DNA of 60,713 nucleotides, taken from Savitreella phatthalungensis. Lineage: Eukaryota. The position numbers and the translations under genes were made by a program. Within the stretch, counting starts at the first letter, position 1, and every line of letters begins with the position of its first letter. Of this stretch, positions 4,307 to 56,733 are shown one piece after another. The DNA lies in assembly GCA_051599415.1 (NCBI GenBank), contig AP039691.1, forward strand, positions 682,001 through 742,713, written 5' to 3'. The notes under the pieces are model-generated. The model worked only from the letters and a program-made list of their open reading frames with translations, had not been told where the DNA came from and ran no database searches.

Positions 4307-5336
4307 TTGAATGTAGTAAGAGTATGCGTGCGTCAGATTCGCGAATCATCGGATGTATATGTGACTCGAGCATTATTGTGGTTTACATGTGCAGCGCTCG
4401 TCCTTCGGGACATCTTTCAGTGCTGCCTCGATGTGGTTGCCGCAACCCGCCCAGGTCGGCTTATTGCAGGTAGAACAGGTTGTTTTGTAGCACATGACTT
4501 GCCTTTGAGAATCTTAGCGTTCGACTCGTGACTTTTTCGTGATGGCCTGGAAGATGCGACTCTGATGCTGGCTTAATCAGAAGACTTTATAGTAAGGCCT
4601 GTGGGTCTGGGGGAGATGCACCCGTCGATATGCATTTCGTACATCAGCATGCGTTCCGGCAAATGAAATAATTGCTCCCCACTGACCGGCATATGAAATT
4701 TCAAACCCCGCTGCAAAGTACTGCTCCGGCCGAATTCAGATTCAGGGATCTCCCAGATAGTTGTGGAAGGCCTCCAGCTCGCGCCGTGGAGTCGAGCAGG
4801 ACATGTTGATCTAATTCAGCTACCTCTGGGGAAGGAGGTCGCCAAGACGTCTGGACATGACTGTGGCAACTGCGCGCGCGTCACCGGAACACAGTATTGC
4901 GAATAACACTATAAGGTATACCGTTCAGTCGATAAGGTAACGTCGCCAGCAACATAGATTGACGGACCAGTGATTGTGTATAAATACTGCCCGTCCCACG
5001 GCACAATTGACTATCTTCACATATGTAGCTTCTCTGTTTCTGCGAGAGTCGCATGCATCGTGCATATGTGTACGTATGTATATGTATTCAGATCTGCAGA
5101 ACCGAACAGATAATTATCCCAAGTAGAGCACGAGAAGACCGCCTTTAGATACTTTTTAATCCCTGCTCTCATGCACATTCCCTTCAGATCTCACGTCAAT
5201 TCGTATTTGATCAAAGCAACGTAAATGAATGTGCGCGTATACACGTAAACACGGTAACCGCCAGTCTCTTCCACGTCCATACGTGCAGTATATCCTAAGC
5301 CGAAGATCCGCTTTGGTGTTACGCATCAGATCCAGT

Positions 5337-5725
5337 ATGCGCTCCTCACTTGCGCAATCCTCACACAAATCCAGGTAGGTCCTTCCGCCCGTGCGGTCGA
5401 TTTCCTTGGCCGCTAACGATTTAGGCAATTGTCCCATCTCCATTCACAACTCGCGCAGTTGCGGGCGCACCTGTCTGATCTAGATTCTCATCTCCGAGTC
5501 ACCAGCATCCAAGCCGAAGCGATCAGACGGCTTGGCGGGTTGCAAGCGGGTTTATTGTAAGTGATCCCGCATGCGGATTTCGCGGTCATATCGCGCATCG
5601 GGCCCGCGTCCTCCAGATACAGCTCGGCCCACATCGAACGAGACACAAACTGACAATCTAGTATGGCTGCCTCGCAGGTGCTTGGAGAAGAATCTATCGG
5701 CAGACATCAAGAATCCAGTACTTAG
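5337..5725 (+). CDS. HSK3: DASH/Dam1 complex subunit Hsk3; exons 5337-5374, 5425-5556, 5662-5725
   Basis: Introns GTAGGT..GCTAAC..TAG (50 nt) and GTAAGT..CTGAC..TAG (105 nt). Spliced product MRSSLAQSSHKSRQLSHLHSQLAQLRAHLSDLDSHLRVTSIQAEAIRRLGGLQAGLFMAASQVLGEE... fits the Hsk3 consensus. Confidence 0.88.
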
Positions 5726-5909
5726 GTCTTATATGTATACTCTTTGAAACAATGACGCCTGATAGTATCGTTGTGCGCGCAGCACAGGTGCGGCTCCACA
5801 CCTATGGAAGATCATTGTCAAGATCTGGGGATCGTGGAATGCTCGGCTGGTCCGCAGCTTGATTTGCGACAACACTTGTTGAACGCAGATGATAGACGAG
5901 TTTGTGGAC

Positions 5910-6152
5910 TCAAGGGCCTGAAAGGCTCAATTTTTCTGGACAGCTAGGAATCTGACGATCATGCTTGGCGTACCATCTACGGCAGCAATCGTAGAGGTCA
6001 TCTATAGCTTTCTGGCATCTCTTCTGATTGTAGTCGTTCTTGGCCAGACAAGACTGTAACTTGCATGTGAGAAAGCTGTTCCTCGGGTTAGTGTGGTCGC
6101 CTCGTTCATGTGCAGAGGCTTCTTACTGACATGCATCAGACGTCTCTGTCAT
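5910..6152 (-). CDS. CMC4: Cx9C mitochondrial intermembrane-space protein Cmc4 (MTCP1/p8 family), 63 aa; exons 6152-6127 and 6075-5910
   Basis: 51-nt GTAAGA..ACTAAC..CAG intron. Product MTETSDACHFLTCKLQSCLAKNDYNQKRCQKAIDDLYDCCRRWYAKHDRQIPSCPEKLSLSGP has Cmc4 cysteine spacing. Confidence 0.88.
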
Positions 6153-6269
6153 TGCTGGTTGATGTTGGAAAGAGCCTGAGGCTGGCGCATCAAATCCTTG
6201 GCTCAGAATGCATGTCGGTATTCAATGTTGATGAGGTTGATATCCACTAATTTGGCAGTTGACATCAAT

Positions 6270-6366
6270 GGCTGCGTGGTCTAGGGGTTATGATTTATCC
6301 TTGCCAAGCCTGAAGTGAATTCAGTGTTGTCTGGATGAGACGCGGATTCGAGTTCCGCCGCAGTCA
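6270..6366 (+). tRNA. Intron-containing tRNA, anticodon GCC (Gly), with atypical acceptor and T stems; intron 6307-6331
   Basis: Cloverleaf: acceptor GGCTGCG/CGCAGTC+A; D arm GTCT-AGGGGTTA-TGAT; anticodon stem TATCC/GGATG with mature loop TTGCCAT; 4-nt variable loop; T arm GCGGA-TTCGAGT-TCCGC; 25-nt intron after position 37. Confidence 0.85.
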
Positions 6367-6367
6367 A

Positions 6368-6376
6368 TTTTTTTTT
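6368..6376 (+). terminator. RNA polymerase III oligo-dT terminator of the tRNA
   Basis: Run of 9 T beginning 2 nt after the discriminator base. Confidence 0.8.
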
Positions 6377-6663
6377 GCATTCTCTGCTTTTACCTTCCCT
6401 CGTTCCCCTGTCTTTCGCGCTTCTATATCGCGATATCTAGCAAAAGGACAATTTTCGTAGCACGGTCGATCAGTGGATTCGTAAGGGTGGCCCTATAGGC
6501 AAGACTATGTGCTTGGACTTCGATAACGCAACAGAGTATGTCTCCCATTCTGTTGATACCATGTTTGGTCTGCCTGATATAATGATGCTAGCATGACACG
6601 TTCGCATATCGGCCGCTTCAGCCGTCACATTCCGCTGCACAACAAAACTCCTACTGGTCGTCG

Positions 6664-7887
6664 CTATGAATTATTGCCGCGCAGCAAAACAGCAGATGTT
6701 ACGACGGCGAGAATGACCGCAGGCGTGAACAGACACGCCATGGCACGATTGAGCAGAATCACATCGCGCGATCTGCAATGGATGATACTCTGGGGCCGAG
6801 CGTCAACTTGTCGCACCGCGACGAAGAAGCCAGCGTGCACCCAAAGTGGTGCACAAAGGAAACCGAGCACGAAAAATCTACTCAGTCGTCTGAGTTCTGC
6901 CGCATCTCTCTCTGCAGTGAGCCGATCTACTGCCGAGTGATAATAGCGCACCTGTTCTAGTCGACGTGGTCGTAGAGTCAAAGGAACCTGAATTCCGGGT
7001 TCCAGGTCGATCATATCCTCGGGAGCCGAGGCCAGCGTTGCAGTGTCTTCGAACTGTAATGGATCCGACTCCCCAGTCCTCTGGCAGCACACCGATCGCT
7101 GCTCGCCTGATGCGTTTGTGCGGATGGAAGAAGCTTCAGAGAGACGCGATCTGGAGTATTTGATGGTAGGCTGTATGACCGCAGAGCCGTGTCTCGCTCC
7201 TGCATCAATATGATTTCCAGGCCTCATGCTTTCGAGGAAATCGATCGAGGCAAATCTATCACGATTCGCCGAAGCATTTCTCGTGGAAAATAGCATAGAG
7301 ATCTGCGCACGGGTATCTGCCGGCTGATCCAGCCAAGCTGGCGTCCTCTTGCGAAGCATCGACCTCAAGGCTAGCTCGAGCTCGTCAGAATCACTCCTCG
7401 ATCGACGTAATTTTGCTAGGACCCAAGGGCAAGCAGAGTTCGAGGAGACCTTGGAGCTTATCCGCGAAGCGTGTCTTGATCTTTGAAGTGGATACATTGG
7501 CCGCTGGTCTTTTGCTAGCAGAGCATGCCTCAACGTAGTATTCCGGCTCCCTTCACCAGTGAACACCGTGTCGTCCGTCCAATCACTCTCGGAAGCACTC
7601 GCACGGAACATCGTGTAGGAGTACCGGGAAGGCTCAGAGCTGGGTCGACTCGACCAGGTTCTGCAATCAGCTCGCGCACTCTTTAGCGCCGCTCGGTCAA
7701 CCTCTGAAGCGGCCGAGCACTGCTCCGTGGGCATTTTTGGGAAGCATGCTACGGCCAAGCTTGTCATCGGACGATCAGATGGTAGCTCTCCTCCCTCATA
7801 ACGGGGCTTATCACTCTCGGTGGCACTATCCCACGAACCATCTGATCGGACATGCTCCTTGAAGCTGCCAAGCCTGCGTAGCGACAT
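6664..7887 (-). CDS. Hypothetical membrane protein (disordered N-terminus, two C-terminal hydrophobic helices)
   Basis: 407-aa ATG ORF; hydrophobic segments FFVLGFLCAPLWVHAGFF and ACLFTPAVILAVVTSAVLL. Confidence 0.65.
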   Translation of the reverse strand: MSLRRLGSFKEHVRSDGSWDSATESDKPRYEGGELPSDRPMTSLAVACFPKMPTEQCSAASEVDRAALKSARADCRTWSSRPSSEPSRYSYTMFRASASESDWTDDTVFTGEGSRNTTLRHALLAKDQRPMYPLQRSRHASRISSKVSSNSACPWVLAKLRRSRSDSDELELALRSMLRKRTPAWLDQPADTRAQISMLFSTRNASANRDRFASIDFLESMRPGNHIDAGARHGSAVIQPTIKYSRSRLSEASSIRTNASGEQRSVCCQRTGESDPLQFEDTATLASAPEDMIDLEPGIQVPLTLRPRRLEQVRYYHSAVDRLTAERDAAELRRLSRFFVLGFLCAPLWVHAGFFVAVRQVDARPQSIIHCRSRDVILLNRAMACLFTPAVILAVVTSAVLLRGNNS

Positions 7888-54390: not shown

Positions 54391-56682
54391 TCAGGCGCGG
54401 GCGGCGCGGGCAGCGGCCACCATATTCTGCAATTGAGCGGTGCACTCTTCCCAAGTACGGGTCTTGAGACCGCAATCAGGGTTGAGCCACAAGCTCGAGT
54501 GAGGAACAACCTTTGCCATGGCTGCAATACGCTCGTCAAACTCCTGCTGCTTTGGAACACGAGGCGAGTGGATATCGAAAAGTCCTGGGCCGACGTTGAC
54601 CTTGTAGTTCTTGGTCTTGAAGACATCGAGCAACTTGAGGTCAGATTTGGATGCCTCACACGAGAGGACATCAGTGTCGAGTGCCTCGATCGCGTCGAAA
54701 ATCTCGTTGAAATCAGAGTAGCAAAAGTGTGAGTGGATCTGCGTGGCGTCCTGAACGCCGGCAGTTGCAAGGCGGAACGACTCGACGGCCCAAGCGAAGT
54801 AAGCGTCCCACTCGCTGCGCTTGAGCGGGCAGCCCTCACGAAGAGCGGGCTCGTCTACCTGGATGACGTTGATGCCGCCCTTCTCGAGGTCATTGACCTC
54901 GTCGCGAAGAGCGAGAGCGAGCTGCTTTGCCTGCACCTCCTCCGAGACATCGTCACGACGGAACGACCAGCGGAGAATGGTAACCGGGCCAGTGAGCATG
55001 CCCTTCATGGGCTTGCTCGTCAGGGACTGGGCATAAACGGACTCCTTGACAGTCATGGCCGCAGGTCTGTCGATGTCGCCGACGATGAGCGGCGGGCGGA
55101 CGTAGCGCGAGCCGAACGACTGCACCCATCCGTTGGTGGTGAATGCAAAGCCGTTCATGCGCTCGCCAAAGTACTGCACCATGTCATTGCGTTCGGGTTC
55201 GCCGTGCACGTACACATCGAGGCCAACCTCGTCCTGGAACTTGACCACAGCCTGGATTTCCTTCTCGATGAAGCGCTCGTACTCCTCAGGAGAGATCTCG
55301 CCCTTCGTGAACTTCTGTCGGGCGATACGGATGTCCTTCGTCTGAGGGAAAGAGCCGATGGTGGTGGTCGGTAGGTCTGGCAGCTTTAGACTCTCACGCT
55401 GAATCTTGTCACGCGACTCGAAGGGCGAGATACGCTTGCCCTGTTGTGCTGTAATGGCCGCAACGCGCTCCTGAACGGTCGCGTTGTTGGTGATTTTGGA
55501 TGACTTGCGGGCTGCCATCGACTTGGCGTTGGCCTCGAGCTCTGCGGAGACATCGTCGCCATTGACGGCACGAGCGATCGTGGCAACCTCGGCGACTTTC
55601 TGTTTTGCGAAGGCAAAGAAGTCATAGAGCTCTGGAGCGATCTTCTTTTCCGACTCCAGATTCACAGGACAGTGTAGGAGCGAGGATGAGGTCGCCACCT
55701 GGACGCGGTCAGAGCCAAGCTTCTCGACGGCGGCCTTGACTGTGGCGATGGCGCGCTCGTAAGAGACCTTCCAGATGTCGCGGCCAGAGACGACACCAGC
55801 GGAGAAAACCTGCGAGTCAGAGATGTTGGCAAGAACAGCATCGAGCTGGTGCGCGGCCGAGCGCGAGACTAGATCGGCGTGGATACCATGAACCTTGAGT
55901 CCCTTGAGTACAGAGACGTCGGTGACGGCGTCGAAGTAGGAGGTGAGCATCAGCTTCGGGCCAGCCGTCGAAAGCTGTGCGTACGTGTCAGCGTACAGGC
56001 TCGTGACGTCGCTCTCGAGTTCGTAAACGAGGATCGGCTCATCGATCTGGACCCATTCGGCGCCAGCAGACTTGAGCTGGCCGAGGAGCTCCTGGTAGAC
56101 CGGGATCAGCTTGGACAGCGATTCCAGAGGCTTCTTTGATGAACCCTTGGCAGTCTTGGACAAGTAGAGGAAGGTGACAGGTCCGATGAGGACAGGACGG
56201 GTTTCAACGCCCAATTCCTTTGCCTCAAGGTACTCCTCGAGTGGCTTGTTCACGTTGATCTTGAACTGCGTGTCGTCGGCAATCTCGGGCCGCATGAAGT
56301 GGTAGTTCGAGTCGAACCACTTGACCATCTCCTGCGAGACGACGTCGACAGCGGGCTTTCCATCGCGGGCAGGTCTCTGCAGACCACGGCCCATGGCGAA
56401 GAGCAGGTCGACGGCTGGCAGGTCAAATTCAACATATCGCTGCGGGACGACGTTGAACAGGAGAGAGTGATCGAGCACCTGGTCGTACAAGGAAAAGTCG
56501 TTAGATGGAATGACCTCGACGCCCTGGCTCTTTTGCAACTGCCAGTTGTCGGCACGGATCTGCTTAGCCACCTTCTGGAGCTCCTCCACAGAGGTCTTAC
56601 CGGACCAGTATGCCTCGGTGATCTTCTTGAGCTCGCGGTTGGCGCCAATGCGCGGGAAACCGAGAACAGCACTCGAGACCAT
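54391..56682 (-). CDS. MET6: Cobalamin-independent methionine synthase
   Basis: LGFPRIG, KWFDSNYH, PTTTIGSFPQT, HGEPERNDMV, HFC Zn ligands and NPDCGLKTR. Confidence 0.97.
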   Translation of the reverse strand: MVSSAVLGFPRIGANRELKKITEAYWSGKTSVEELQKVAKQIRADNWQLQKSQGVEVIPSNDFSLYDQVLDHSLLFNVVPQRYVEFDLPAVDLLFAMGRGLQRPARDGKPAVDVVSQEMVKWFDSNYHFMRPEIADDTQFKINVNKPLEEYLEAKELGVETRPVLIGPVTFLYLSKTAKGSSKKPLESLSKLIPVYQELLGQLKSAGAEWVQIDEPILVYELESDVTSLYADTYAQLSTAGPKLMLTSYFDAVTDVSVLKGLKVHGIHADLVSRSAAHQLDAVLANISDSQVFSAGVVSGRDIWKVSYERAIATVKAAVEKLGSDRVQVATSSSLLHCPVNLESEKKIAPELYDFFAFAKQKVAEVATIARAVNGDDVSAELEANAKSMAARKSSKITNNATVQERVAAITAQQGKRISPFESRDKIQRESLKLPDLPTTTIGSFPQTKDIRIARQKFTKGEISPEEYERFIEKEIQAVVKFQDEVGLDVYVHGEPERNDMVQYFGERMNGFAFTTNGWVQSFGSRYVRPPLIVGDIDRPAAMTVKESVYAQSLTSKPMKGMLTGPVTILRWSFRRDDVSEEVQAKQLALALRDEVNDLEKGGINVIQVDEPALREGCPLKRSEWDAYFAWAVESFRLATAGVQDATQIHSHFCYSDFNEIFDAIEALDTDVLSCEASKSDLKLLDVFKTKNYKVNVGPGLFDIHSPRVPKQQEFDERIAAMAKVVPHSSLWLNPDCGLKTRTWEECTAQLQNMVAAARAARA

Positions 56683-56733
56683 GGCTTCTATGTTGTGTCT
56701 TTTACTTCAGAAACTTTGGAGAAGCTGCGAAAA

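Follow-up and report, generated by a model that had tools for sequence, protein, structure and literature searches.

A probable intron-bearing tRNA-Gly(GCC) gene with unusual acceptor and T-stem pairs in a poorly sampled ascomycete lineage

The tRNA gene and its neighbours

We describe a tRNA gene with anticodon GCC that lies on the plus strand at 6270-6366 of the window, the 60,713-nt stretch of DNA analysed here and in whose coordinates all positions are given. The gene holds a 25-nt intron at 37/38 and is followed by a run of nine T. It is divergent from CMC4, whose start codon is about 100 bp from tRNA position 1. The features of the locus are as follows:

5913-6074, minus strand: exon 2 of CMC4 (Cx9C motif protein 4; Pfam, PF08991, E 1.1e-15)
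about 6127 to about 6170, minus strand: first exon of CMC4, upstream of the intron at 6076-6126
6270..6306, plus strand: 5' exon, tRNA positions 1-37 (sequence, Rfam, ARAGORN), with the acceptor 5' strand, D arm and anticodon stem
6277..6287, plus strand: positions 8-19, the A-box region of the internal RNA polymerase III promoter; U8, A14, G18 and G19 are present
6303-6305, plus strand: anticodon GCC, in the 5' exon, in the loop U33-G34-C35-C36-A37
6307..6331, plus strand: intron of 25 nt at position 37/38 (ARAGORN), with a 5-bp hairpin, 6310-6314 / 6320-6324
6332..6366, plus strand: 3' exon, positions 38-73, with the anticodon stem 3' strand, variable loop, T arm and acceptor 3' strand
6345..6355, plus strand: B-box region, positions 52-62; in place of the usual bases A53 stands for G and T61 for C, and T54, T55, C56 and A58 are kept
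6368..6376, plus strand: run of nine T, starting one base (A) past the discriminator, a probable RNA polymerase III terminator

The acceptor stem has 7 bp (G1:C72, G2.U71, C3:G70, U4:A69, G5:C68, C6:G67 and G7:C66, followed by U8 and G9), its first three pairs being G6270:C6365, G6271.T6364 and C6272:G6363, and the discriminator A73 is A6366. The D stem includes G10.U25 (G6279.T6294), with an 8-nt D loop bearing G18 and G19. The anticodon stem, though weak, is intact (U27.G43, A28:U42, U29:A41, C30:G40, C31:G39), and its loop runs U32-U33-G34-C35-C36-A37, then through 25 extra bases, then U38, with C35 and C36 at C6304 and C6305; in the predicted fold the intron also pairs with the anticodon loop. 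The variable loop is of 4 nt, AGAC, with G45 (G6339) and C48. The T stem is made up of G49:C65, C50:G64, G51:C63, G52:C62 and A53:U61 (6346:6354), and the T loop is TTCGAGT, with its T-T-C at 6347-6349. The remaining bases of the tertiary interactions are canonical (U8, A14, G15:C48, G18, G19, U33, U54, U55, C56 and A58). A preliminary description of this DNA had listed the cloverleaf, the intron position, the nine-T run, the pairs 1:72, 2:71 and 3:70, A73 and A53:U61, and on re-reading all of these statements hold.

Over 6270-6366 alone, the Rfam tRNA model RF00005 scores 41.9 bits (E 6.8e-08; gathering score 29). The match covers model positions 1-71 of 71, has 27 inserted nucleotides in the anticodon loop and places the sequence in the tRNA family. 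With introns allowed, ARAGORN reports a tRNA-Gly(gcc) whose 25-nt intron follows position 37. Without introns it miscalls the 6270-6366 region as tRNA-Leu(aag), and an Rfam scan of the whole window with default filters at the gathering threshold missed the tRNA at 6270-6366 and listed nothing; both outcomes are due to the tRNA intron. We note that default runs can lose or mislabel fungal tRNAs bearing introns.

Minimum-energy folding fails to give the cloverleaf for the spliced tRNA, but this says little because it fails likewise for 9 of 11 canonical Gly(GCC) sequences. The spliced cloverleaf is less stable than the predicted minimum by 3.5 kcal/mol, which is within the range of those 11 sequences (2.3-7.7 kcal/mol) and so gives no sign of a defect.

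The window ORFs that were scanned with Pfam are ordinary housekeeping genes; the ORFs were taken stop to stop, and those left after 29 that overlap longer ORFs were dropped by eye made up the scanned set. Just downstream of the tRNA, a 407-aa ORF at 6664-7887 (minus strand) has no match to a Pfam family at E 1e-5 or better.

Comparison with canonical tRNA-Gly(GCC) genes and identity rules

For comparison, a metagenome collection was scanned with the D arm and anticodon loop of this tRNA, the variable stem bases being set to N, and 81 loci were obtained (L001-L081). ARAGORN with introns reports Gly(gcc) in 79 of them, and these tRNAs comprise 16 distinct strings. Judged by contig names and neighbouring genes, these metagenomic comparison tRNAs come largely from marine eukaryotes, with some from archaea and none from fungi. 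By eye, each of the 16 distinct Gly(GCC) strings has an 8-nt D loop, a 4-nt variable loop, A73 and a G1-C2-G3 start, and the same start is seen in 18/18 distinct Gly strings when one with CCC and one with UCC are included (five carry an extra 5' T added by ARAGORN).

The window gene has in common with the canonical genes of the 79 loci the D arm, identical throughout the pattern used for the scan, the 8-nt D loop, G10.U25, U33-GCC-A37, A73 and G1:C72. The canonical variable loop is of 4 nt with G45, of the AGAY or GGAC kind, and the AGAC of the window gene matches it. Since canonical Gly(GCC) genes have this D arm too, it is ordinary for a eukaryotic or archaeal tRNA-Gly(GCC). The canonical genes have C2:G71, G3:C70 and G53:C61 throughout, whereas the window gene has G2.U71, C3:G70 and A53:U61; G53:C61 is moreover present in all 129 of the 129 distinct tRNAs from the metagenome loci (ARAGORN, with a check of the stem). 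As far as the sequence goes, only three pairs are odd, namely 2:71, 3:70 and 53:61. The window gene also differs in its 25-nt intron, as only 1 of the 79 canonical Gly(GCC) genes has an intron.

Several features of the metagenome loci are worth recording in their own right. The Gly(GCC) gene of L014, with the same D arm, is interrupted at 37/38 by an intron of 116 nt. At L001-L010 and many other loci, a compact tRNA cluster recurs that includes the canonical Gly(GCC) gene, whose neighbours there are SeC(tca), Met(cat), Ile(tat) or Thr(tgt), and an intron-bearing Tyr(gta). At L009, Thr(tgt) takes the place of the Ile(tat) of the others in a near-identical body, which may reflect an anticodon shift.

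The preliminary description had considered the body to be Val- or Pro-like. This does not survive the comparison, as the window tRNA shares with canonical tRNA-Gly(GCC) its D arm, its 8-nt D loop, its 4-nt variable loop including G45, its G10.U25 pair and A73. The Pro genes of the same metagenome loci differ, with a D loop of 7 nt, a variable loop of 5 nt and C73, and so do the Val genes, with a variable loop of 5 nt. Eukaryotic tRNA-Pro is moreover listed with C73, G35 and G36 (PMC9976931, Table 1), and the window tRNA has A73, C35 and C36. These same likenesses to Gly(GCC) in loop lengths, G45, G10.U25 and A73 make it quite unlikely that the gene is a recruit from another isotype (e.g. Val, Pro, Asp or Glu) that gained GCC by mutation and now serves as a tRNA-Gly. 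Such an origin would fit an acceptor stem that is not Gly-like, and it has a precedent in yeast, the intron-bearing K. lactis tRNA-Gly(UCC), which was proposed to come from tRNA-Glu by U35C (Yoshihisa 2014, PMC4090602); anticodon shifts have also been surveyed across eukaryotes (PMC3923123). In a crude comparison of identity to the window tRNA, in which some alignments are degenerate and Gly(GCC) is favoured by the choice of loci, these having been picked with a pattern from this very tRNA, Pro (51/72) and Val (49/72) come next after Gly(GCC) (57/72).

In cytosolic tRNAs G53:C61 is treated as invariant, on grounds of T-loop geometry and the polymerase III B box. For eukaryotic tRNAs, the pair that ends the T stem is described as “always G53=C61”, with the B box and the T-loop fold as constraints (PMC9023262), and its strict conservation has been explained by a hydrogen bond from N4 of C61 to phosphate 60 (PMC7912444). 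In the window tRNA the pair is A6346:T6354. Having no amino group, U61 cannot give the N4 hydrogen bond of C61, and because A53 and U61 lie in the B box, transcription could be weaker. Searches of open-access text, judged by titles, abstracts and matching passages, turned up no natural nuclear tRNA with A53:U61; the one match to A53-U61 was an engineered mutant from a KEOPS study.

For glycine, the eukaryotic identity set is given as A/U73, G1-C72, C2-G71, G3-C70, (G10:Y25):G45, C35 and C36 (PMC9976931). The second and third pairs are named as the important acceptor pairs for GlyRS in yeast (PMC9976931, PMC10164559), and C2-G71 is described as recognised by a conserved arginine of alpha2 GlyRS (PMC10164559). 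The consensus of the tRNA-Gly family comprises only G1-C72, C35, C36 and the (G10-Y25):G45 triple in the account of PMC9976931. The window tRNA has every element of this family consensus, and A73 too. The two yeast-type acceptor determinants are both replaced, C2-G71 by G2.U71 and G3-C70 by C3:G70.

A second locus and the pattern of differences

Public contigs were compared with the window over positions 5300-7300, where one run, X4, gave no match. The runs X1 (12.7 Mb of contigs) and X2 represent one sample, which is also that of the window, X1 being its possible source, and X3 represents a relative at low depth; the evidence for selection comes from this one sample and this one relative. A 97-nt contig of X1 spans exactly 6270-6366. 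It agrees with the window at all 72 exon bases and departs from it at 7 of the 25 intron bases, namely 6309, 6315, 6317, 6319, 6323, 6325 and 6331. The chance that 7 random differences over 97 positions would all hit the 25 intron positions is 3.7e-5. Two more X1 contigs overlap only the end of the 5' exon (6270-6299) or of the 3' exon (6337-6373) and then pass into unrelated sequence, and since the flanks are unrelated on both sides, this is a second locus (copy 2) and not an allele. Depth gives a rough copy number of about 2 (54 for the 97-nt contig vs about 46 for the single-copy flanks, some contigs having been filtered out).

The window's own letters are confirmed by an X2 contig that joins its 5' flank, its version of the intron and its 3' exon with zero differences. 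An X3 contig (2.5x depth, from an organism 95-99% alike) covers 6313-6488. For its 3' exon no difference is listed, its intron differs once, and its flank shows substitutions as well as small gaps; given how close the organism is, this lends selection little weight. The T run at 6368-6376 varies, with one T more in an X2 contig and one fewer in the X3 contig, and the trailer of copy 2 is also T-rich, with a T5 run in a 30-letter stretch of the contig's loose end.

The differences in the copy-2 intron can be set against its fold. The change from A to G at 6323 keeps a hairpin pair with U6311 (U:A becoming U.G), the changes from C to T at 6309 and from T to A at 6325 form a new pair that makes the hairpin longer, and the joint change at 6315 and 6319 allows these two to pair. 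The change at 6331 costs the copy-2 fold a predicted G34:C pair. Under an imposed cloverleaf, both precursors are predicted to fold to the same anticodon-loop/intron helix and intron hairpin, and each copy would thus have, in the manner of a canonical tRNA intron, a single 37/38 intron with a structured anticodon-intron region.

Exons that are identical between two loci with a diverged intron indicate purifying selection, and argue against a pseudogene or an assembly error. The suggestion in the preliminary description that the paired change reflects selection, not decay, is thus borne out by the second locus, and its concern that the odd bases might be sequence errors can be put aside, since the same exon letters occur in X1 and X2 and the same 3' exon in X3. 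A non-functional relic, whether a decaying pair of pseudogenes or an artefact of sequencing or assembly, would explain why two near-universal features are broken, two B-box bases among them. We nevertheless consider it very improbable indeed: besides the contrast between 0/72 exon and 7/25 intron differences at loci with unrelated flanks, the cloverleaf is intact, the other invariant bases are kept, A53:U61 is a paired double change, T-rich trailers are found at both loci, and the letters agree in all three runs (in X3, those of the 3' exon).

An X2 contig is of interest in other respects. It is without 5373-5422 and 5557-5661 (plus strand) and 6076-6126 (minus strand), segments whose edges are GT..AG or CT..AC, and since three intron-like segments are absent from it, X2, which is recorded as “DNA?”, looks cDNA-derived. 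It thereby defines introns in the two genes upstream of the tRNA, that of CMC4 included. The same contig crosses the tRNA gene with the tRNA intron retained, contigs being unable to show transcript ends or strand. The splice joint of 6306 to 6332 was not among the contig joints, which cannot show absence.

Codon use, charging and relation to known systems

The window holds a MetE gene at 54394-56706 (minus strand), in which 33 of the 38 Gly codons are GGY, 26 of them GGC. In an alignment built from every third homologue of P0008-P0120 (38/113), GGY stands at 18 of the 20 Gly columns that are invariant across 39 sequences. The presence of GGY at invariant MetE glycines means that GGY is read as glycine and that the organism needs, and makes heavy use of, a GCC decoder that carries glycine; the view expressed in the preliminary description, that GGY has undergone no wholesale reassignment, stands on this evidence. 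The MetE protein is only 62-63% identical to those of Schizosaccharomyces and Lipomyces, the nearest named fungi, and 74-88% identical to closer matches (P0002-P0007), and its distance from the former two points to a deep, poorly sampled ascomycete lineage.

The identical exons, the structure-preserving introns, the invariant bases, the T-rich trailers and the Gly(GCC)-type body together argue for a working tRNA-Gly(GCC). We therefore think that this is probably a functional nuclear tRNA-Gly(GCC) gene, specific to its lineage and present at at least two loci, in a deep-branching and poorly sampled ascomycete, and we infer from the sequence that it is transcribed, spliced, glycylated and used in translation. 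RNA polymerase III would transcribe the gene from its internal A and B boxes and halt at the T run, after which splicing endonuclease and ligase would take out the 25-nt intron at 37/38. The mature tRNA of 72 nt plus CCA would be charged with glycine by alpha2 GlyRS, presumably recognised through C35, C36, A73, G1:C72 and the G10.U25/G45 core, and would then read GGC and GGU on the ribosome. G2.U71, C3:G70 and A53:U61 may be lineage-specific departures that are tolerated or compensated, for instance by a change in how GlyRS reads the acceptor stem. It is possible that the two copies are the main or only Gly(GCC) genes of a small genome. With a small genome and low redundancy of tRNA genes, the simplest account is that the acceptor pairs drifted in this lineage and GlyRS followed; the paired change from G:C to A:U at 53:61 is likewise part of it. 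Against a working tRNA-Gly(GCC) it must be said that C2-G71 and G3-C70 are both replaced, that G53:C61 is lost and that the B box is altered.

Alternatively, the tRNA might be an ambiguous or mis-acylated decoder, charged in part or in full by another enzyme, most plausibly AlaRS by way of the shifted G.U, with low-level misinsertion at GGY. Both yeast-type GlyRS acceptor determinants are gone, with G2.U71 and C3:G70 in place of C2-G71 and G3-C70, and the selection on the exons implies that the unusual acceptor is either actively maintained or, at a minimum, tolerated. A translocated G2.U71 is reported as the determinant of Drosophila mitochondrial tRNA-Ala, G4.U69 tRNAs of vertebrates are alanylated, and such mischarging is described as tolerable (PMC9976931). 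In the Drosophila mitochondrial case, however, G2.U71 is paired with G3-C70, whereas here 3:70 is C:G, so that the G3.U70 of tRNA-Ala is also absent. ARAGORN draws an eighth acceptor pair, T6269:A6366, which would put G.U third, and the preliminary description had on this basis raised an Ala-like 8-bp acceptor; copy 2 has C at -1 (in the loose end before 6270), so the T-1:A73 pair on which a third-position G.U depends is a coincidence of the window locus and is not conserved, and the Ala-like register falls with it. The strong GlyRS determinants C35 and C36 are intact, as is A73, and with GGY dominant at the invariant MetE glycines a strongly mistranslating main decoder would be very costly. 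We thus regard mis-acylation as improbable.

Another conceivable role is that of a specialised glycine donor working off the ribosome, for tRNA-dependent transferases such as ErgS. ErgS is described in Ascomycota as using Gly-tRNA-Gly (PMC8913301), A53:U61 lies in the T arm, which together with the D arm is where the staphylococcal non-proteogenic tRNA-Gly differ (PMC7826273), and, provided that canonical copies are present too, a pair of conserved copies would be consistent with a side function under selection. Yet ErgS is reported to have worked with ordinary, partially fractionated yeast tRNA-Gly (PMC8913301), and hence no special donor is required. Nor does the T arm resemble that of the staphylococcal tRNAs, which are characterised by an altered T-loop triplet (UGC for UUC) and weak binding of elongation factor (PMC7826273): the T loop here begins T-T-C, U54-U55-C56 and G18-G19 are kept, and the pairs at 49:65, 50:64 and 51:63 are G:C or C:G. 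In the Pfam scan, which took in 43 of the 72 window ORFs of at least 130 aa, no DUF2156 or aminoacyl-tRNA synthetase family was found at E 1e-5 or better. A donor role is in our view decidedly improbable. That one or other of the unorthodox functions applies, namely that this is a selected two-copy tRNA charged at least partly with an amino acid other than glycine (most plausibly alanine, as programmed low-level mistranslation of GGY) or a dedicated off-ribosome donor of glycine, would still be unlikely.

A working tRNA-Gly(GCC) of this kind, under clear purifying selection and with the anticodon for its host's preferred glycine codon, breaks G53:C61, C2-G71 and G3-C70. It could therefore serve as a natural experiment on how far the T-loop rule is truly obligatory, on how TFIIIC copes with an altered B box and on how the identity rules of GlyRS drift in an isolated fungal lineage. 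Should canonical Gly(GCC) genes coexist with it, the conserved variant would need a separate job, and alanylation and the donation of glycine would both gain in likelihood.

The departures of this tRNA have partial counterparts in other systems. Its displaced acceptor G.U is like that of Drosophila mitochondrial tRNA-Ala, where G2.U71 is accepted by AlaRS, and like the G4.U69 of vertebrate tRNA-Thr and tRNA-Cys, which is alanylated by AlaRS and likewise lies one step from 3:70 (PMC9976931). Those tRNAs are Ala acceptors or documented cases of mischarging, whereas the window tRNA has C3:G70 and the anticodon determinants of GlyRS. The non-proteogenic tRNA-Gly of Staphylococcus are similarly selected tRNA-Gly paralogues that depart in the T and D arms, as described in PMC7826273, but they are bacterial, have a UCC anticodon and bind EF-Tu weakly, whereas the window tRNA has the UUC triplet, G18-G19 and a T stem rich in G:C. 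The tRNA-Gly(UCC) of K. lactis, as characterised in PMC4090602, is like the window tRNA in being of yeast lineage, in having an unusual body and an intron at the canonical position, and in being present as two gene copies. Its whole body, however, is like that of another isotype and its anticodon is UCC, whereas in the window tRNA, with its anticodon GCC, only the pairs 2:71, 3:70 and 53:61 depart.
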